64,000 bases of DNA from a virus. Lineage: Duplodnaviria; Heunggongvirae; Uroviricota; Caudoviricetes. Made by a program: the position numbers and the translations under genes. The stretch lies in the IMG/VR virus record IMGVR_UViG_3300025765_000001; one strand, 5' to 3'. Below, in pieces: positions 4,498 through 18,478 of the stretch. A model generated the notes under the pieces. That model worked only from the letters and a program-made list of their open reading frames with translations, was not told the origin of the DNA and made no database searches. The number at the start of each line of letters is the position of its first letter. The first letter of the stretch is position 1.

Positions 4498-4630
4498 GGT
4501 TATAACTTTCCTTTCATATACTTCCTTTATTCGGGACTGGTATGTAAGGTTATGAAGAACAAAATAAACACACCACTCCACTATTAAAGGAGAACCATCT
4601 AAACCCAGGGAAAGGAAGAGATTATAGCAA

Positions 4631-6628: not shown

Positions 6629-6647
6629 TCTCTAGCTCCAAAATAGT

Positions 6648-6830
6648 TCAATGTGCCGCCTCGAACATCTTCATCAACTCGACACGATCTATGCCCAGAA
6701 GGACACAAACCACGCCTGGAAGCAACCTCCCCTTTTCATCGAAACACTCGTTCTTCTGGTTTGTCAGAGCATCTACCAGAGGAGCGAAGCCGGATGATCG
6801 GAAATGGTTGCAGATGTCGAGATGCGTCAT
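6648..6830 (-). CDS. hypothetical protein
   Basis: Short ORF packed between operon genes. Confidence 0.45.
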   Translation of the reverse strand: MTHLDICNHFRSSGFAPLVDALTNQKNECFDEKGRLLPGVVCVLLGIDRVELMKMFEAAH

Positions 6831-10729: not shown

Positions 10730-11493
10730 CAGCATCTACGATGTAGGGGCTTTCGGCTCCGAAAAACGTAAATCCAAATTTCGGTCTGAAAAACTGCTTC
10801 TCGGTTCCGTACCAAGATGGCTACAAACAAGTGGTCATCACGCCCAAAGCATTCGGGTTTGTGATAGAAACCAAGGATTAGCAAGAACAAAGTTGCTACT
10901 ATAGACATTGGCTTAAACACTTTGGCTGCGATAACTTACGACCAGAACCGTCCAATACTGGTCAATGGTCGCATTGTCAAAAGTATCAACCAATGGTACA
11001 ACAAGCGTCCTTGCAAGAGCCGGTTGAGGAAGAGGTACTTTCGCTTGGAAAACTACTTCCATCATGTGTCTAAACTGGTCGTTGACCTATGCCTAAAGCA
11101 CGGCATCGGCAGAATCATCATTGGTAAAGTCAAGTATCAACTTGGGCAAGAAGACCAACCAAGCGTTCTGTTTTGTACCGACCTATCTCTTGCTGGAGAA
11201 GATCAAGTACAAGGCAGCGATTGCTGGAATTAACGTGACCTTCACGGAGGAAAGTTACACCAGCAAGGCGAGTTTCTACGACCGTGACCCACTGCCATCA
11301 GCAAGGACGGGTTTGCCGTGAATACTGATGTGAATGGAAGCCTGAAGGACGAAAAGTAATCCCTCAGTTCTTAGGAATAGGGGATAGGAGCATTGCCGCA
11401 ATGCCTGTAGTGGTCAACCCGTTGAAAACTTGATCGGTGAAGGATCAGGTGGTTGATTGCTCAAACCAGATTTCCGTAGGTTTTCTGGAACGG
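10730..11493 (+). mobile_element. tnpB: frameshifted tnpB pseudogene with IS607-like right end
   Basis: IDIGLNTLAA, NGRIVKSINQWYNK, KIKYKA..EESYTSKASF, NTDVNGS; ends GTAGGTTTTCTGGAACGG. Confidence 0.8.
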
Positions 11494-11602
11494 TACTCCT
11501 GTTGTGCGAAACAAAGTGTAAAGTAGTCTAGACAAAGGCAGCGGACGGGACTATATTGGTCCCGTTCCGCTGAACTAACCCCGTTTCAAAGGAGTCCCAA
11601 CG

Positions 11603-11788
11603 ATGAGTAGCTCGAAGGAGCAGGCCATCCGTGAGTTGGCCTACAAGAAGTGGTTGGAAGCCGGTGCCCCGGCTGGTAACGATGGCGTCGAGTTCTGGAC
11701 AGCCGCCGAGAAAGAGATCGGCCAAAGCAACCCGACTACCTGCGGAGAAGCCGAAGGGTGCGGAGACGACGACAGCGAAAAAGACTGA
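11603..11788 (+). CDS. DUF2934-like protein
   Basis: IRELAYKKWLEAGAPAG..FWTAAEKEI pattern; RBS AAGGAG. Confidence 0.75.
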   Translation: MSSSKEQAIRELAYKKWLEAGAPAGNDGVEFWTAAEKEIGQSNPTTCGEAEGCGDDDSEKD

Positions 11789-11937
11789 TTTTTCGTAAAC
11801 CTTTCGCCCCGCTCCCCCGTCTACATATTCAGATGAGCCAGATTGGGCCTTGGCCCGTATTTAACCCGGTGATCCCCAAAGCTGGGAAAAGGCGGCAATG
11901 CCCGATCTGGTGAAATCTGAAAAAGTGAATTCTGGGC

Positions 11938-11968
11938 TTGAAAAAAATTGTCAGGTGCGTACTATACT
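11938..11968 (+). promoter_or_regulatory. sigma70-like promoter of the tRNA operon leader
   Basis: TTGAAA (11938) and overlapping TACTAT/TATACT (11960-11968). Confidence 0.6.
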
Positions 11969-11996
11969 ACCTAGACGATACGAGGAACCAAAAATC

Positions 11997-12077
11997 ATGC
12001 ACGCTCTGTTAAGCTATAGCCTGTCATCCTTGTCCTCGCTCTTTAGCGAGCCTGGAGAGACTGCCGCTGTAGCTTGA
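11997..12077 (+). CDS. attenuator leader peptide MHALLSYSLSSLSSLFSEPGETAAVA
   Basis: RBS GAGGA at 11982; 14 consecutive Leu/Ser/Tyr/Phe codons; overlaps attenuator pairing segments. Confidence 0.85.
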   Translation: MHALLSYSLSSLSSLFSEPGETAAVA

Positions 12078-12144
12078 CGCACGAACGTGCGACGTGGGGA
12101 ACAAGGCCCCGGTGAGCTAAGCGGCTCACCGGGGTCTTTTTTTT
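12008..12144 (+). promoter_or_regulatory. ribosome-mediated transcriptional attenuator (1:2, 2:3, 3:4)
   Basis: 1:2 = 12008-12020 with 12066-12078; 2:3 = 12063-12075 with 12114-12125; 3:4 = terminator. Confidence 0.85.
12103..12144 (+). terminator. intrinsic terminator (attenuator 3:4)
   Basis: AAGGCCCCGGTGAGC / GCTCACCGGGGTCTT stem followed by T8. Confidence 0.92.
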
Positions 12145-12151
12145 GGTACAC

Positions 12152-12240
12152 GGAAGGGATTGCAAGTGGCTATGCTACCCTGTTTGCTAAACAGGCAGGC
12201 GGCGAAAGCCGCCTTGCGGGTTCGACTCCCGCTCCTTCCG
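12152..12240 (+). tRNA. tRNA-Ser(GCT)
   Basis: Cloverleaf, CCTGT-TTGCTAA-ACAGG, long variable arm, G73. Confidence 0.9.
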
Positions 12241-12243
12241 CTT

Positions 12244-12327
12244 GGGCCTGCTACGATTGTGGGAAACGAGACTGGCTGTAAACCAGTTGCTCTATAGAGA
12301 TAAGGGGTTCGATTCCTCACAGGCCCA
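12244..12327 (+). tRNA. tRNA-Tyr(GTA)
   Basis: GGGCCTG/CAGGCCC, ACTGG-CTGTAAA-CCAGT; atypical D arm. Confidence 0.8.
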
Positions 12328-12384
12328 TTAGGTAAAGCGGCTTTATCTAGTTAAGGTAAAGCGGCGTTATCTTAGGAGATTGAG

Positions 12385-12510
12385 ATGCAATACTGTCCGG
12401 CTTGCAACAGGTTCAAGCAAGCTAAGTTCTTCGCCGCTGAGGAACATCGGTATTGCAAAACGTGTGAGAAGAAATGGAGGAAGATCAACGGGCGAGTAGT
12501 GAAGGTATAA
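12385..12510 (+). CDS. 41-aa zinc-ribbon microprotein
   Basis: RBS AGGAG; MQYCPACNRF...YCKTCEKKWRKINGRVVKV. Confidence 0.6.
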   Translation: MQYCPACNRFKQAKFFAAEEHRYCKTCEKKWRKINGRVVKV

Positions 12511-12511
12511 C

Positions 12512-12596
12512 GGAAGAGATGAAGAGCGGCTACTTCACCTAGTCTTGAAAACTAGCGGGCCGAAAGGCTCTGCGGGTTCGACGCCCGCCTCTTCCG
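12512..12596 (+). tRNA. tRNA-Ser(TGA)
   Basis: CTAGT-CTTGAAA-ACTAG, variable arm, G73. Confidence 0.9.
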
Positions 12597-12602
12597 CTCG
12601 AT

Positions 12603-12690
12603 GCCCAGGTGGTGGAACTGGTAGACACGCAAGGTTCAGAGCCTTGTACCCGTTAAGGGCGTGTGGGTTCGAGTCCCACCCTGGGCACCA
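12603..12690 (+). tRNA. tRNA-Leu(CAG)
   Basis: Canonical class II cloverleaf with encoded CCA. Confidence 0.95.
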
Positions 12691-12691
12691 T

Positions 12692-12774
12692 GCGTCAGCA
12701 TCCCATGTGGCGAGGGAAGCAGACTGTAAATCTGTGGGCTTTAGCCTGTGCAGGTTCGACTCCTGCCTGACGCA
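12692..12774 (+). tRNA. tRNA-Tyr(GTA)
   Basis: GCGTCAG/CTGACGC, GCAGA-CTGTAAA-TCTGT. Confidence 0.88.
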
Positions 12775-12786
12775 CTGGAGGTAGAG

Positions 12787-13260
12787 ATGGTTGGTATAGT
12801 AATGGGGTCCAAGTCCGATTGGGAAACCATGAAGGCTGCCGCCGACATACTAGACCAACTCGGTGTGAAGTATGAGAAGAGAGTTGTTTCTGCTCACCGC
12901 ACACCAGACCTCCTGTTCGAGTACGCCGAGACAGCGAAGGATCGAGGACTCAGAGCGATCATAGCTGGTGCTGGTGGGGCAGCCCACCTACCGGGAATGC
13001 TCGCAGCGAAGACGAAAGTTCCGGTACTTGGAGTGCCGGTCGAATCGAAAGCCTTGCGTGGAATAGATTCGTTACTGTCGATAGTGCAGATGCCGCTTGG
13101 AGTTCCTGTGGCGACGTTCGCTATAGGGCCAGCGGGTGCCGGGAACGCCGCCCTGTTTGCCGCAGAGATGTTGGCCCACAGCAACCCGGAGATCGATTAC
13201 GCACTCGACAAGTATAGAGCGGCACAGACGCAAAGAGTGCTGGACACGGAGTTGTCATAA
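12787..13260 (+). CDS. purE: N5-CAIR mutase
   Basis: [39 protein letters not shown]. Confidence 0.97.
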
Positions 13261-13332
13261 GGGACGATAGCTGAGATAGATTAGCGATTGGCTGAAAACC
13301 AGTAGAGGTTGGTGCGATACCAACTCGTCCCA
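13261..13332 (+). tRNA. tRNA-Phe(GAA)
   Basis: GGGACGA/TCGTCCC, CTGAAAA loop; T-loop TGCGATA is atypical. Confidence 0.8.
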
Positions 13333-13344
13333 CTTGTTCTAGTC

Positions 13345-13358
13345 TGATCTTTGACAAT
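13345..13358 (+). promoter_or_regulatory. rrn-type boxA antitermination element
   Basis: TGATCTTTGACAAT, close to boxA consensus TGCTCTTTAACA, in a tRNA spacer. Confidence 0.6.
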
Positions 13359-13422
13359 TTGGTAGTTTGAAGTCGCACTTTCCCACCAGCCAGTGCGTGT
13401 CTCACCATACGCACTGGCACTT

Positions 13423-13495
13423 GTGGAGGAAGCAATTGTGGTCAATGCACCGGTCTGAAAAGCCGGTTAAGTGGGTTCGATCCCCACCCTCCACA
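13423..13495 (+). tRNA. tRNA-Phe(GAA)
   Basis: GTGGAGG/CCTCCAC, CCGGT-CTGAAAA-GCCGG. Confidence 0.85.
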
Positions 13496-13502
13496 CTCCT
13501 AT

Positions 13503-13577
13503 GAGTCGGTAGCTCAGTTGGTAGTAGCGTCTGCCTGAAGAGCAGAAGGTTCGTCGGTTCGATCCCGACCCGGCCCA
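13503..13577 (+). tRNA. tRNA-Phe(GAA)
   Basis: TAGCTCAGTTGGTAG D arm, TCTGC-CTGAAGA-GCAGA; one acceptor mismatch. Confidence 0.85.
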
Positions 13578-13702
13578 CTCGGAAGGTGCAATGTCGGCTT
13601 GTAGTCACTCTGGTTTCGCTCGTGGTGATAAAAAGATCAAACGATTGGGTGACGGAGCCGAAGGAAGTTTCCATGTCGCTCGTAGCGGCTAGGAGAAGGA
13701 CA

Positions 13703-14878
13703 ATGGAAAAGGTACATGTAAACGTCGGCACCATCGGTCACATCGACCACGGTAAGACCACGTTGACGGCTGCGATCCTTGCCGTCCAAGCAGAAAAGGG
13801 TCTAGCGAAACGCAAGAGCTACAAGGACATTGCCAAGGGCGGCACCTATCGTGACGAAAATAAAACTGTCACGATCATCACGTCGCACGTCAAGTACGAG
13901 ACGCCGACGAGGGAATACGCCCACATCGACTGCCCAGGCCACGCTGATTATGTGAAGAACATGATTACCGGGGCCGCACAGATGGACGGTGCAATCCTCC
14001 TGCTCTCGGCGGTGGACGGGCCTATGCCTCAGACAAGAGAGCATATCCTGCTCGCTCGCCAAGTGGGAGTGCCAGACCTTGTAGTGTTCATCAACAAGTG
14101 CGATCTAGTTGAAGACACCGAGATCATCGATCTGGTCGAACTGGAAGCTCGTGATCTTCTGGCGAAGTACGGATTCGACGGCGAGAAGACGCCTGTAATT
14201 CGTGGCAACGCCAAGGCAGCACTCGAAAATCCAGCCGATCCAGAATGTCGGAAGTGCATCGAGCAACTGCTAGATGCTCTCGACAGCTACATCCCGAACC
14301 CGGTGCGAGCCATCGATAAGCCGTTCCTAATGCCTATCGAGGGCGTCCATAAGATCGAGGGTCGTGGCACTGTAGCGACAGGAAAGATCGAGCAAGGCGT
14401 CGTCTGCCCCAACATGAAGGTCGAGATCATCGGCCTGGGAGAGATACGGGAAACCGTAGTCATCAGTGTTGAGGCGTTCAACGAGGCCAAGGAGAAAGGC
14501 GAAGCTGGCGAGAACGTTGGCGTCTTGCTCCGAGGCGTCAAGTACGACGAGATCAAGCGTGGTCAGGTTTTGACGCAACCTAGAACGGTCAAGCCGCAGA
14601 CCAAGTTTGAGTGCGAGGTCTACGTTCTCAGCAAGGAAGAGGGCGGGCGACACACGCCGCTGTTCAGCGGCTACAAGCCGCAGTTCTTCTTCCGAACAAC
14701 GGACGTGACGGGTGAGGTTAGCTTGGATGAAGAGATTTCAATGGTGATGCCGGGAGAAAACGCCCAACTACGAGTAGAACTCGGCAAGCCAGTGGCTCTC
14801 GAAGTCGGGACTCACTTCGCTGTCCGTGAGGGCGGCAAGACAGTTGGCTCTGGTGTCATCACCAAGATGCTAGAATAG
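13703..14878 (+). CDS. tuf: elongation factor Tu
   Basis: [41 protein letters not shown]; RBS AGGAGAAGG. Confidence 0.98.
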
Positions 14879-14884
14879 AAACCC

Positions 14885-15036
14885 AGAGTCGTTTACAATG
14901 GAATAGCCTTGATCGGGCTTGCGGGAATTAACAAGGTGCCGCTCGACGCTCATTAGCGAATCGGGAGGAAATGGGGGCCTAAGAATCCTCACAACTTGGA
15001 AGGGCATGTATAGATCGCAAGCTAGTGAACGACTCT
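14885..15036 (+). ncRNA. candidate structured RNA between tuf and the Leu tRNAs
   Basis: 12-bp closing stem AGAGTCGTTTAC/GTGAACGACTCT plus GCTTGCG/CGCAAGC. Confidence 0.45.
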
Positions 15037-15038
15037 AT

Positions 15039-15113
15039 CGCCGGGTGACGGGAATAGGCATACCTCTGATACTTAAAATATCAGGCTTGTGGGTTCGAGT
15101 CCCACCCCGGCGA
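15039..15113 (+). tRNA. tRNA-Leu(TAA), short variable loop
   Basis: TGATA-CTTAAAA-TATCA, A73. Confidence 0.88.
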
Positions 15114-15120
15114 CTAGACG

Positions 15121-15168
15121 GAAGGTGCGTCCGAAAGGACTTGTGGGTGCGAATCCCACATTCACTGT
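15121..15168 (+). pseudogene. 3' half of a class II tRNA
   Basis: Variable arm GTCCGAAAGGAC and T arm GTGGG-TGCGAAT-CCCAC without a 5' half. Confidence 0.5.
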
Positions 15169-15193
15169 AGGCGTATATTTCTCCGTCTAATTT

Positions 15194-15268
15194 GTCCAGG
15201 TGACGGGAACTGGCATACCTAGATGGCTTAGAACCATCTGTTTGTGGGTTCGACTCCCACCCTGGACA
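15194..15268 (+). tRNA. tRNA-Leu(TAG), short variable loop
   Basis: GATGG-CTTAGAA-CCATC. Confidence 0.9.
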
Positions 15269-15272
15269 CTGC

Positions 15273-15356
15273 GGCCTTGTGGTGAAATTGGCAAACACGC
15301 TAGTCTCAAACACTAGTGCCCTTACGGGCTTGTGGGTTCGAGTCCCACCAAGGCCA
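15273..15356 (+). tRNA. tRNA-Leu(CAA)
   Basis: CTAGT-CTCAAAC-ACTAG, long variable arm. Confidence 0.92.
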
Positions 15357-15360
15357 CTAT

Positions 15361-15435
15361 GTTCAGGTGACGGGAACTGGCATACCTCTCAGGTCGAGAG
15401 CCTGGGGCTTGTGGGTTCGACTCCCACCCTGAACA
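15361..15435 (+). tRNA. tRNA-Leu(GAG), short variable loop, C33
   Basis: TCAGG-TCGAGAG-CCTGG; lacks invariant U33. Confidence 0.75.
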
Positions 15436-15439
15436 CTCT

Positions 15440-15514
15440 GCCGAGATGACGGGAACTGGCATACCTCTCAGCCTCAAAAGCTGGGGTTTGTGGGTTCGAC
15501 TCCCACTCTCGGCA
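15440..15514 (+). tRNA. tRNA-Leu(CAA), short variable loop
   Basis: TCAGC-CTCAAAA-GCTGG. Confidence 0.88.
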
Positions 15515-15523
15515 CTAGAAACG

Positions 15524-15550
15524 AAAAGGCCCGCCTTGCGGCGGGCCTTT
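15524..15550. terminator. bidirectional terminator
   Basis: AAAAGGCCCGCC-TTGC-GGCGGGCCTTT between convergent units; same hairpin inverted at 20861. Confidence 0.8.
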
Positions 15551-15554
15551 GGGA

Positions 15555-15899
15555 CTACTTCTTGGAAGTCCGTTTCTTCGATGTGGTTTTCTTGGCTGAC
15601 TTCTTGGAGGCCCTGGCTTCGGCCCGGCGAGCTTTGATAGCTTCGGTCCAGAGTGTGGTTTGCTCCTCCTCGTTGTCGTAGTCAACCTCGAAGCCGTGGG
15701 TGTCAACCTGATCGTTCTTGAGACCGAGCTTCTCCTGGGCGGTGTAGGCACCACCGACCCCGCCGAGTTGCCCAAGGACGCACTCGAAGTTGGATGACAT
15801 CTGCAAGTTCGCAGGCTTGACCTTGTTGGCCCAGCCCGGCCAATCCTTGTCGAGTTTGCGGATGCCCCGATTGACACGAGTTTTGATAGATTCGGCCAT
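15555..15899 (-). CDS. hypothetical protein with Lys-rich tail
   Basis: RBS AAGGAG; ends SKKSAKKTTSKKRTSKK. Confidence 0.7.
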   Translation of the reverse strand: MAESIKTRVNRGIRKLDKDWPGWANKVKPANLQMSSNFECVLGQLGGVGGAYTAQEKLGLKNDQVDTHGFEVDYDNEEEQTTLWTEAIKARRAEARASKKSAKKTTSKKRTSKK

Positions 15900-16315
15900 G
15901 ACACAACTCCTTAACATTATGGGTAAGCGAAACGAAGAGGCAGTATCACAAGAACTAGGTTTTTTGACAAGAGCAACACTACAGGCCCAACTGAAAGCCG
16001 ATAGACAGGGTTCAGCGGGCGTAGCTAACCTGCGTTGCCTGCCATGAGCGGTCGCAAGACACGTCTCTTCAGGAAGACCTACGACGAGATATGCGGGTTC
16101 GATTCCCGTCAGGTCCACTACCACGGATTGCAAAGGTAATGATCGAGTGCTTCCAGGGCTTGGCGGACTTGCCAAACCGGAACAACTGAACGGAAGGAGA
16201 TTTTCGGATCGTGCCAGTCTTGCAGATCAACGGATGCATTTGTGTCGTCCGTGACTATGCTAAGGTAGCATGATCCCATCTTTACTACCTGCATGATGCT
16301 ATATAGTAGAACCAC

Positions 16316-16404
16316 GGAAGCGATTAAGAGTGGCTACTTTACCCCGCTTGGAAAGCGGGCAGGCGGTGCAAGCCGCCTTGCGAGTTCGACTCTCGCCGCT
16401 TCCG
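16316..16404 (+). tRNA. tRNA-Ser(GGA)
   Basis: CCCGC-TTGGAAA-GCGGG, variable arm, G73. Confidence 0.9.
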
Positions 16405-16422
16405 CTCCCGAAAGAAAGGCAC

Positions 16423-16668
16423 ATGAAAGACATGAACATCATTCAGTTTCTAGCTCGCAAGGGAGCGACTGTTTCGATGTCGGAAAGCAGGCGACTCGTG
16501 GCTTGTGGTATAGTTCGTGTGAACGACCACCCTGAACCTGACATGTCCAGAGTTCTCAAAGTCGGCGATGTCGTCTCTATAGGACAAAGGAGATGGGTAT
16601 GTACCGATGCAGAAGTACAAGATTCTCCAGACAAGGACAGTGAAGGAGTTCCTATGGTTTCCCCGTAG
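16423..16668 (+). CDS. stand-alone S4-like RNA-binding domain (TyrRS C-terminal type)
   Basis: SMSESRRLVACGIVRVND...LKVGDVVSIGQRRW. Confidence 0.75.
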   Translation: MKDMNIIQFLARKGATVSMSESRRLVACGIVRVNDHPEPDMSRVLKVGDVVSIGQRRWVCTDAEVQDSPDKDSEGVPMVSP

Positions 16669-16768
16669 GGTAAAAGGCAAACTCCGCTGGCTGTGCTTCA
16701 TCGAACATTCTGAATTTTTGATCCAGGTGCGATCCACTGGCGAACGTAAATGGGTCAAATTCAAGTAA

Positions 16769-16853
16769 GGAAGAGATTGAGAGCGGCTACTCTACCTCGC
16801 CTCGAAAGCGAGCGGGCCGAAAGGCTCTGCGGGTTCGACTCCCGCCTCTTCCG
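16769..16853 (+). tRNA. tRNA-Ser(CGA)
   Basis: CTCGC-CTCGAAA-GCGAG, variable arm, G73. Confidence 0.9.
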
Positions 16854-16917
16854 CTTTTGACCACGCCTCAAACGTGAGCTATGCTTTTCTGTGGACTAAC
16901 TCAGGGGAGCAAGAAGC

Positions 16918-17211
16918 ATGAAGGTCGTGTGTGCGTGGTGCCAGGAGCGGATGCCCGACAAGGAGCCGCTTGAAGACGAAACGATTTCGCATGGGCTGTG
17001 TGGTCCATGCATGGCGGTGGTGCTGGAAGAATCGTGTTTACAATCGACCCCGAAGACACTAGAATGCCGGGGTCTTGATGCAGAAAGAGTCGTTCAGTTG
17101 CCAAGCGGAGTAGGAAATTCAGATGAGACAACCGCCGTTCGGAATGCCCCCCTGGATGATGGGTCCGTGGATGATGGGGCAGGACCAGCAGCACCAGCAA
17201 TATACTCCTGA
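16918..17211 (+). CDS. small Zn-binding hypothetical protein
   Basis: CAWC..SHGLCGPC. Confidence 0.55.
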   Translation: MKVVCAWCQERMPDKEPLEDETISHGLCGPCMAVVLEESCLQSTPKTLECRGLDAERVVQLPSGVGNSDETTAVRNAPLDDGSVDDGAGPAAPAIYS

Positions 17212-17230
17212 CCTCATCGTTCCAGCCAGA

Positions 17231-17680
17231 GTGCCTTCCGAGAATCCAGTTTTGAAAATTGGCGAAGGTTCCTCGAACCTGTACTAAGGAACCTAAATAG
17301 GTAAACCTCACAGCTTCGGCAGTGGGACAATGCTCACGAGATGAAGACCCAGAAGGAACCGTAGAGGGTGGAAGTCCCGTAGTCGCCGACATGTTGTAAT
17401 AGACGTAGACTGAACTGTTCCTCTGGTCGGAAATCAGGGGCGTGTGGGAGACGCTGAAAGCACCATTGTTTGGCAGATAATCTAAGCGTCAGTTGTACCA
17501 CGGTTGATGATCGGTCGGATGGTGCACAGGGCTTCGGCCTATGCATGTGTCATCAGCGTGAGGGCTAACCGACAAACTCTGGACAAGGCCATATCCAACG
17601 GCGTGCCTGTTCGGTAGCCGTATGGACCGGGATGCAGGGGAGGGGTGTTGCCCGATACAGAACCTCAGAGAAGGGCCGGT
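17231..17680 (+). ncRNA. candidate large structured ncRNA (RNA-A)
   Basis: ~450 nt with no credible ORF and many hairpins, including two UUCG loops. Confidence 0.55.
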
Positions 17681-17704
17681 TAGCATTTTTGTACCAGGAG
17701 AACG

Positions 17705-17956
17705 ATGATTTCAGACAACGGATTCCCTCGTCGGTGCCGAATTGATCTGATGACTCCAGCCGAACTTGTAATCCGCAGAGCAACCAGGGAAAAGACACTC
17801 AATCGTGAAGTTGGGGAATTGAAAAATTCTGCTTCTCTGAAAGATCAAATTTGCGGATTACTGATGGATATGCATATTGGGTCAAGTGGTATGCACAGGC
17901 CAGCAGTGGAGGCAAAGTCGGTGGCTATCCTCGAACTAGTCAATGAATCGGCGTGA
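17705..17956 (+). CDS. hypothetical protein
   Basis: RBS AGGAG; short ORF. Confidence 0.45.
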   Translation: MISDNGFPRRCRIDLMTPAELVIRRATREKTLNREVGELKNSASLKDQICGLLMDMHIGSSGMHRPAVEAKSVAILELVNESA

Positions 17957-17983
17957 CCGTCTAATAAATGGACGCTTTTCGTA

Positions 17984-18068
17984 GCCCAGGTGGTGAAATG
18001 GCAGACATGCAAGGCTCAGAACCTTGTGCCAGTTAAACGGCGTGTCGGTTCGAGTCCGGCCGTGGGCA
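17984..18068 (+). tRNA. tRNA-Leu(CAG)
   Basis: CAAGG-CTCAGAA-CCTTG; one acceptor mismatch. Confidence 0.85.
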
Positions 18069-18108
18069 CTTAGGCCCTCTGGGGGTAGACCCTTGGGAGA
18101 CCTCCCTT

Positions 18109-18260
18109 CGATGTTAAGCAGAGACAGCCAGGATGTTGGCTTAGGAGCAGTCATCATATAATGAATGAGTTGGACAATGCCGCCAAAGGCAGGGAAGTCG
18201 GCTACGGCACCTTCCCATTTAGGCGTAATAGCACACTGGCCGAGCTAGTCGAGCCTAACG
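18109..18260 (+). ncRNA. 23S rRNA GTPase-associated centre (H42-H44) mimic RNA
   Basis: AGACAGCCAGGATGTTGGCTTAGGAGCAGTCATCATATAATGAA ... GCGTAATAGCACACTGGCCGAG matches 23S nt ~1045-1112, with a ~57-nt insertion. Confidence 0.85.
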
Positions 18261-18291
18261 CCGGGTGTGTACACACCCGGCGTTATTTTTT
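18256..18291 (+). terminator. intrinsic terminator
   Basis: TAACGCCGGGTGT/ACACCCGGCGTTA plus T6. Confidence 0.88.
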
Positions 18292-18478
18292 GGTACCTGT
18301 ATAACTCCCAAAGTCGGCGACCTGATTCAGTGGCAGTGCGAACATTACTACATGTTTCGCCCGCTCGCCAAAATTACCGACATCTCTCCGTGTGGCAGAT
18401 TCGTCTTCGTAGAAGGGAGTCGGTGCGGAATTCCAATTTCCGAAATTGTGGAAATCCAAAAACCCAAGGAGGCAAACA

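Follow-up and report, generated by a model that had tools for sequence, protein, structure and literature searches.

Results

Organization of the tRNA clusters

The window analysed here, a 64-kb stretch of DNA, is the start of a 435,946-base virus record. The window and the genome carry genes for a gp23-type capsid, ribonucleotide reductase, PolA, DnaB and RecA, and a record of this size with such a gene content indicates a jumbo phage. The closest cellular homologs of its EF-Tu, at 65-68% identity, are from Pirellulales/Planctomycetota, and this similarity is no more than a weak pointer to a planctomycete host. The genome has about 65 tRNA genes, which are split into three clusters referred to here as A, B and C (Table 1). 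Cluster A contains the full Ser and Leu tRNA sets, and neither amino-acid biosynthesis genes nor synthetase genes were found in it. A hairpin (15525-15550) and an antisense gene (15555-15900) separate its tRNA-Ser(GGA) and tRNA-Ser(CGA) genes, at 16316 and 16769, and one Leu(CAG) gene from the proximal part. Because they lie beyond these two features, the three distal tRNA genes may belong to a separate transcript that is not attenuated.

Table 1 Positions of the leaders, the tRNA clusters and their associated features.
Feature	Position	Strand	Description
sigma70-type promoter	11938-11965	+	-35 TTGAAA, 16 nt, -10 TACTAT; 9/12 match
Shine-Dalgarno GAGGA	11982-11986	+	10 nt 5' of ATG; read from sequence
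Leader A ORF	11997-12077	+	26 codons and TGA; homologous leaders in relatives have 18-27 codons
Control codons 4-17	12006-12047	+	Ser/Leu/Tyr/Phe throughout
Segment 1	12007-12020	+	pairs with 12066-12079 when ribosome absent
Segment 2	12063-12079	+	overlaps final codons and stop; alternative partners segment 1 or 3
Helper hairpin	12092-12113 (12092-99/12107-13)	+	holds lower 5' arm of terminator
Intrinsic terminator	12103-12144	+	16-bp stem 12103-12138, -31.1 kcal/mol; T8 at 12137-12144
Segment 3	12114-12125	+	top of terminator 5' arm, loop and three 3'-arm bases; 12-bp antiterminator with 12063-12075
tRNA-Ser(GCT), first tRNA of cluster A	starts 12152	+
Cluster A, proximal part	12152-15515	+	Ser(GCT,TGA), Tyr x2, Leu(CAG,TAA,TAG,CAA x2,GAG), Phe x3; purE and tuf interspersed
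purE	12787-13260	+	inside cluster A; TIGR01162 above cut-off
tuf (EF-Tu)	13703-14878	+	inside cluster A; TIGR00485 above cut-off
Cluster A, distal part	16316-18069	+	Ser(GGA), Ser(CGA), Leu(CAG); on leader transcript: uncertain
Cluster A, whole	12.1-18.1 kb		Ser, Leu, Tyr and Phe only, with purE and tuf
Leader B	L001 1836-1922; unit L001 1836-2025 (G000 165335)		before cluster B; terminator 1985-2019
Cluster B	165-179 kb		Asn, Lys, Ile, His, Gln, Arg, Cys, Gly
Leader C	L002 4350-4460; unit L002 4350-4570 (G000 184850)		terminator 4528-4564, 15 nt before cluster C
Cluster C	185-192 kb		Met, Pro, Gly, Asp, Thr, Glu, Val, Ala

Several other features were noticed in and around the clusters. An ORF with an S4 domain (16330-16668) lies amid the cluster A tRNAs besides purE and tuf, and we have no explanation for a possible co-regulation of purE with these tRNAs. 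The antisense gene that splits the cluster (15555-15900, - strand) encodes a Lys/Ser-rich C-terminal tail and has a promoter-like site at 15970-15942 and a terminator at 15525-15550. Four tRNA-Leu genes of 76 nt (15039-15114, 15194-15269, 15361-15436 and 15440-15515) are without the long variable arm and adjoin tRNA-Leu genes of the normal 85-88 nt; short tRNA-Leu genes are also present in L003, L010, L012, L128 and L131. A degenerate remnant resembling tRNA-Leu(CAG) was recognized by eye at 16030-16120 and was not called by ARAGORN. Just 5' of the leader promoter, positions 11828-11920, about 95 nt, can fold into a long and irregular hairpin (-46.8 kcal/mol, without shuffle control), which comes after a 61-aa ORF (11603-11788) and is possibly a small RNA. 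Cluster B contains an insertion (L001 3780-6653) with MerR-HTH/resolvase and TnpB-like transposon genes (IS607-like) and a LAGLIDADG endonuclease. A tRNA-like gene at L002 5366-5641 has a structured insert of about 180 nt (a low-threshold Arg call by ARAGORN with a weak tmRNA hit). Short tRNA calls with a TCA anticodon (L002 10889-10959, with an atypical loop, and L259 5623 and 5724) are possible UGA readers or degenerate genes.

A leader upstream of cluster A

An initial annotation of the interval between the promoter and the first tRNA had described a leader-peptide attenuator. All the elements it listed, namely the promoter, the ribosome-binding site, the ORF, the helices, the terminator with its T8 tract and the 7-nt gap between the end of this tract and the first tRNA gene, are present as annotated (Table 1), and we likewise counted 14 control codons with ten distinct Leu/Ser/Tyr/Phe codons. 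The three mutually exclusive helices stand as well. Helix 1:2 has 14 bp in the minimum free energy structure, with a duplex energy of -18.1 kcal/mol; helix 2:3, the antiterminator, has one bulge and a duplex energy of -17.3 kcal/mol. What had been missed is the helper hairpin. Its counterpart, a helix of 4-9 bp, is found in every homolog with different letters. The leader as a whole folds more stably than expected, with a z-score of -6.3. Helix 1:2 could serve as an RNA polymerase pause hairpin for the coupling of transcription to translation. Within the window, Rfam returned only tRNA matches and no family for the leader.

The same TTGAAA/TACTAT promoter elements precede the leaders in L003, L005, L010, L128 and L131, and the leader promoter is the top match to that consensus in 11400-18400. 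A second promoter between 12145 and the tRNAs, which would have refuted the initial annotation, was not found in a scan of the + strand from 11965 to 14870. Moreover, an independent promoter between the terminator and the tRNA is precluded by a gap of only 7 nt. Farther upstream, a promoter at 11529-11557 might transcribe into the leader region.

The control codons match the cluster by amino acid

The run of control codons is specific to its reading frame: all 14 codons specify Ser, Leu, Tyr or Phe in the frame of the ORF, compared with 2 and 4 in the other two frames. Such a run was not reached in any of 20,000 shuffles of its own nucleotides, and longer Ser/Leu/Tyr/Phe runs occur in the genome, read in all six frames, only as poly-Ser tracts. 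The match between leader A and cluster A was found per amino acid, not per isoacceptor. The initial annotation had stated that every control codon has a matching tRNA downstream, and this is so at the level of amino acids. At the level of codons, the ten distinct codons compare with 9.7 expected from the amino-acid sequence alone (P = 0.58), and Ser(GGA) and Ser(CGA) are perhaps off the transcript. The codon-by-codon statement adds nothing beyond the amino-acid match because cluster A has full Ser and Leu sets. We therefore rejected isoacceptor-level design as evidence, codon diversity being at chance in leader A and likewise in leaders B and C. The leader may be a multi-codon sensor for four amino acids, and sensing of individual isoacceptors is not established.

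A ribosome-dependent switch in silico

The folding of the leader was examined by blocking pairing under a ribosome placed at each codon and folding the nascent RNA at the stage of terminator nucleation. The probability of nucleation, scored on the loop-proximal pairs, was 0.97 without a ribosome, 0.00-0.08 with the ribosome at codons 3-19 and again 0.97 at codons 21-27. The antitermination window thus coincides with the control codons. The comparison that the initial annotation had called for, a ribosome on codons 4-17 versus one at the stop codon, gave 0.01 versus 0.97. In the stalled state, segment 2 (12063-75) was predicted to pair with 12114-25, while the helper hairpin kept the remainder of the terminator 5' arm.

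The switch was stable to footprints of +8 to +14 nt as long as the 3' end of the RNA did not exceed 12129; it was complete up to that position, partial at 12130-12133 and absent at full length. At equilibrium the full terminator always won over the antiterminator (-31.1 versus -17.3 kcal/mol), and no unit showed a switch in full-length equilibrium folding. Since the switch fades past about 12131 and the full terminator prevails at equilibrium, the antiterminator must act kinetically. We infer from this folding model that it may block nucleation while the 3' arm is still within the polymerase.

None of 300 and none of 120 dinucleotide shuffles of the ORF and spacer reproduced the three-state pattern, and among 108 terminator-like hairpins of the genome only leader A's own showed it. 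A coarser test that compared the duplex energy of helix 2:3 alone with shuffles gave P = 0.16 for the window and 0.00-0.63 for its relatives; it ignores intramolecular structure and is superseded by the ensemble tests.

Matched leaders before the other two clusters

Leaders B and C (Table 1) came out of a blind scan for short ORFs followed by a terminator. Leader B is rich in Ile, Gln, Arg, His, Lys, Cys and Asn codons, and 17 of its 27 codons match cluster B. Leader C is rich in Thr, Val, Ala, Glu, Gly and Pro; 32 of its 35 codons match cluster C, or 27 of 35 if doubtful Arg and Phe calls are left out (P = 2e-4 for 27/35). The corresponding count for leader A and its own cluster is 14 of 25. 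No leader among the three was enriched for the amino acids of another cluster. Leader B showed the full switch, which no shuffle out of 120 reached. For leader C, termination required a ribosome at the stop codon, and the state in which untranslated RNA terminates is absent. Leader B contains two Trp codons, yet no Trp tRNA was called in the genome. A tRNA with a CAT anticodon lies upstream of the second leader and outside its control, both here (L001 1635-1709) and in LR756511.1 (L345, reverse, 577).

Conservation in related phages

Phages with 65-74% identical EF-Tu also have a Ser/Leu/Tyr/Phe and tuf cluster. Leaders with Ser/Leu/Tyr/Phe runs of 13-16 codons, a short tail and a U-tailed terminator were found in L003/L004, L005/L007, L010/L011, L012, L128 and L131, and also in GenBank LR756511.1 (L343; 16 of 18 codons), located via its tRNAs. 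The runs in relatives are all frame-specific, and in each of eight leaders at most one shuffle in 20,000 reached the run. The Ser/Leu/Tyr/Phe unit recurs in seven divergent phage leaders, among which the paired sequences differ. The promoter is kept among these leaders, and the rest is conserved at only about 55% per column. The initial annotation had suggested a search for matched leaders with covarying helices in related phages, and such leaders exist: segments 2 and 3 vary in sequence between phages, and their complementarity of 9-12 bp stays. Substitutions within the run are synonymous or exchange Ser, Leu, Tyr and Phe for one another. Neither the order of residues nor the length is conserved in the homologs; only membership in this set of four is kept.

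In five of the six relatives tested (L003, L005, L010, L012 and L128), the difference between stall and stop was reached by 0-3 of 120 shuffles. The switch of L131 is weak, with 8 of 120 shuffles reaching it, and L003 and L005 are without the state in which untranslated RNA terminates. No leader was found in L008, L009 and L035, which have a related cluster, or in the mixed tRNA arrays that were inspected (L006, L132, L143, L144, L150 and L151). No cultured phage matched the leader. Bacterial copies were considered and rejected: in Pirellulales/Planctomycetota, which have the nearest cellular EF-Tu loci, tuf belongs to an ordinary Thr-Tyr-Gly-Thr-tuf operon that no leader precedes. Relatives of leaders B and C, sought via a neighbouring SPFH protein, led to two phages with other tRNA layouts and no leader.

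Other lineages and prevalence

In G006 (618 kb) and G007 (230 kb), GC-rich phages that belong to another lineage, tuf is in a Pro/Arg/Leu/Tyr cluster, and the leader of that cluster is rich in Pro, Arg, Leu and Tyr. Their other leaders, rich in Thr/Asp/Val, Ala/Gly/Ser/Cys/Trp, Glu/Asn, Lys, Gln, His or Arg, precede matching clusters. G006 has eight leaders and eight clusters, for which the true pairing was the best of 40,320 permutations; in a second permutation test on G006/G007 it was the best of 120. As these leader ORFs were chosen with knowledge of the cluster content, the single P values are inflated. The ORFs inspected lie close behind a TTGAC promoter. Most of the leaders in this lineage (L244, L245, L246, L248, L251, L252 and L253) are without a U-tailed terminator, and downstream hairpins abut or pair with the 5' end of the first tRNA. 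This suggests that their output step may differ from the terminator type. One G006 leader (L249 1104-1190) has three AGG codons and one ATA before a tRNA(CAT) and a tRNA-Arg(CCT). If the CAT tRNA is of the lysidine Ile type, this arrangement hints at matching at the isoacceptor level.

Upstream of its cluster of the remaining tRNAs, LR756511.1 has a second leader, with 32 codons none of which specifies Leu, Ser or Tyr (P about 0.001); no switch was seen for it in a simple folding model. For 143 unselected tRNA clusters, only ten terminator sites were located upstream, and one had a clear matched leader. This leader (L337, reverse, 6642-6758), from another phage, is a Thr/Lys/Arg/Gly/Ile/Met/Val/Trp leader followed by a terminator (P = 3.5e-6). 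One clear case in 143 indicates that the design is not universal and is a minority feature.

Discussion

Leader A compared with known systems

The leaders trpL, hisL and leuL are leader-peptide attenuators of amino-acid biosynthesis operons. Leader A resembles these and pheL: control codons in a short ORF lie on segment 1, the 1:2, 2:3 and 3:4 helices are alternatives, the terminator has a U tail, and a stall would free segment 2. Unlike them, it is in a phage, would control tRNA genes and tuf rather than enzymes and has an extra helper hairpin. It does not meet the criterion for a biosynthetic or synthetase operon, which requires enzymes or aminoacyl-tRNA synthetases downstream, as tRNAs, purE and tuf are found there instead. 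The product of leader A's operon would, in addition, directly restore the decoding of the control codons. Multivalent attenuators are exemplified by thrL (Thr, Ile), ilvL of ilvGMEDA (Ile, Leu, Val) and ivbL. Like those, leader A interleaves several amino acids in a long run, and shortage of any one should give read-through. It differs from them in that it has four amino acids, with eight or more in leaders B and C, in that the set is defined by the tRNAs of the cluster and in that three leaders partition the code in one genome. In E. coli, the leader peptide of the pheM-pheST attenuator senses charged tRNA-Phe and controls the translation machinery; its target is a synthetase, its amino acid a single one and its location chromosomal, unlike leader A with its tRNA set. 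For pheL-pheA, the segment logic is as in leader A (PMC3082878). Leader A has every attenuator feature that can be tested in sequence, that is, a ribosome-binding site with an ORF, cognate codons, exclusive helices, a U-tract terminator and a codon-dependent switch, the last in silico only.

Two other kinds of regulator were considered and rejected. T-box riboswitches are tRNA-responsive antitermination elements before translation genes; they recognize uncharged tRNA by direct binding through a single specifier codon, and no translation is involved. The Rfam matches in the window are tRNA only, and to our knowledge a T-box could not use the absence of a tRNA as its on-signal. Nascent-peptide arrest leaders of the ermC, tnaC or secM type were rejected since the homologs have no conserved arrest sequence and keep only composition.

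Phage tRNAs can replace host tRNAs destroyed by nucleases, as reported for a T5-like tRNA-Tyr against retron-Eco7 PtuAB and tRNA-Lys against PrrC (PMC11555353). Rescue by the phage tRNA-Tyr depends on high expression from a strong promoter, and no leader or attenuation is mentioned (PMC11555353). Unlike the supply of those counter-defence tRNAs, the supply under leader A would be conditional and feedback-controlled. The initial annotation knew of no attenuator on a phage tRNA array, and we too found none on tRNA genes or phage tRNA arrays in the open literature. Subscription papers were mostly not covered, and this absence is not proof. The proposed mechanism is that of a classical ribosome-mediated attenuator; its new part is the target, the tRNA genes themselves.

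A model for leader A

We propose with considerable confidence that leader A is a ribosome-mediated transcription attenuator of the trp/phe type that exerts negative feedback on the phage's own tRNA supply. The logic was already that of the initial annotation, and it is supported because the constrained folds place the switch window on the control codons, two more matched leaders occur in the genome, divergent phages keep the pairing logic and the composition of the leaders tracks the tRNAs of their clusters. The anatomy, the composition match, the computed switch and the recurrence are observations. Translation of the leader, switching in vivo and the trigger are inferred, there being no expression, ribosome-profiling or termination data; for translation and the response in vivo, the kept reading frame and the synonymous substitutions are indirect support only.

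Host RNA polymerase would initiate near 11972 and a ribosome would translate the leader. When codons 4-17 are read fast, the ribosome at the stop codon would cover segment 2 and the terminator would nucleate; in untranslated RNA, segment 1 would hold segment 2 with the same outcome. Transcription would then end 7 nt ahead of the first tRNA. When there is too little Ser, Leu, Tyr or Phe tRNA that is both charged and intact, the ribosome would linger on segment 1, the freed segment 2 would pair with the terminator loop while the helper hairpin holds the lower arm, and the polymerase would continue into the tRNA genes and tuf. The circuit would amount to negative feedback on tRNA supply, since the control codons are read by the very tRNAs that it yields. 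The genome would divide its roughly 65 tRNAs among three such modules.

Which signal opens the terminator is a separate inference. Loss or inactivation of host tRNA during infection, through a host tRNase defence or general decay, is the most likely trigger, and we favour it with fair rather than high confidence because extra tRNA cures a loss of tRNA but not a lack of amino acid and because the cluster has no amino-acid biosynthesis genes. It is possible, but clearly less likely, that the same attenuator responds naturally to amino-acid starvation (uncharged tRNA) or to a general slowdown of elongation, such as by loss of EF-Tu, and that the phage, by raising tRNA and EF-Tu, competes for the little charged tRNA available. 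A ribosome cannot distinguish an uncharged from a missing tRNA, as is established for the trp, his and phe leaders, tuf is inside the regulated cluster, and the match of leader A is shown only per amino acid. Against this possibility, synthetase genes are as absent from the cluster as biosynthetic ones, and cluster-specific leaders would be needless in a general slowdown. In addition, the G006 leader with three AGG codons precedes tRNA-Arg(CCT), and a Pro/Arg/Leu leader with only CGN Arg codons precedes Arg(ACG)/(CCG); both hint at matching at the level of tRNA, although the numbers are small.

It is improbable that a phage antitermination protein opens the terminator or that temporal promoters bypass it, which would leave the leader as a secondary or vestigial tuner. 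The terminator is far stabler than the antiterminator, the promoter at 11529-11557 could read into the region and some relatives do without a leader, all of which would suit such a bypass. However, the open frame, the ribosome-binding site, the run of control codons and the 2:3 complementarity are kept across divergent phages, and a vestige would lose them. Even less probable is that the ORF acts through its peptide, either by nascent-chain arrest as in ermC or tnaC or as a small membrane peptide, with the codon match being incidental. The run is moderately hydrophobic with its Leu, Phe and Ser residues and its Ser-Leu-rich pattern recurs among homologs, but what recurs is membership in the set and not order or length; the leaders of the other clusters differ entirely in composition and are again matched, and the leader peptide has no family hit. 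Chance, that is, a pyrimidine-rich stretch before a constitutive terminator that happens to read as Ser, Leu and Phe, is effectively refuted: U/C-rich sequence is enriched for these codons and longer poly-Ser runs exist elsewhere in the genome, but the frame specificity and shuffle results hold in all eight leaders, three of three tRNA clusters in the genome have matched leaders, and the cluster would be silent if a constitutive terminator stood 7 nt ahead of it without an intervening promoter.

The reason for the presence of tRNA genes in phages has long been in question, and codon bias, decay of host tRNA and anti-defence compete as explanations. A leader that depends on slow reading implies that the tRNA genes behind it respond conditionally to a shortage of tRNA. 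It also offers a ready reporter, since whatever opens the terminator is what the tRNAs answer. More tentatively, and as a possibility that we would not yet call likely, the leaders of these jumbo phages may form a modular surveillance panel for the tRNA pool of the host. The leader of each block would read the block's own codons, all leaders together nearly the whole genetic code; tRNAs destroyed by a defence nuclease of the host would be detected and only the matching block transcribed, here with EF-Tu and the short-arm Leu tRNAs, as an inducible counter-defence that is triggered by the defence itself and made of RNA only. The attenuator proposed for leader A would extend leader-peptide attenuation from enzymes to tRNAs as a direct feedback loop, for which we found no published example, and the composition of a leader would predict the boundaries of operons and which groups of tRNAs are lost together in infection.
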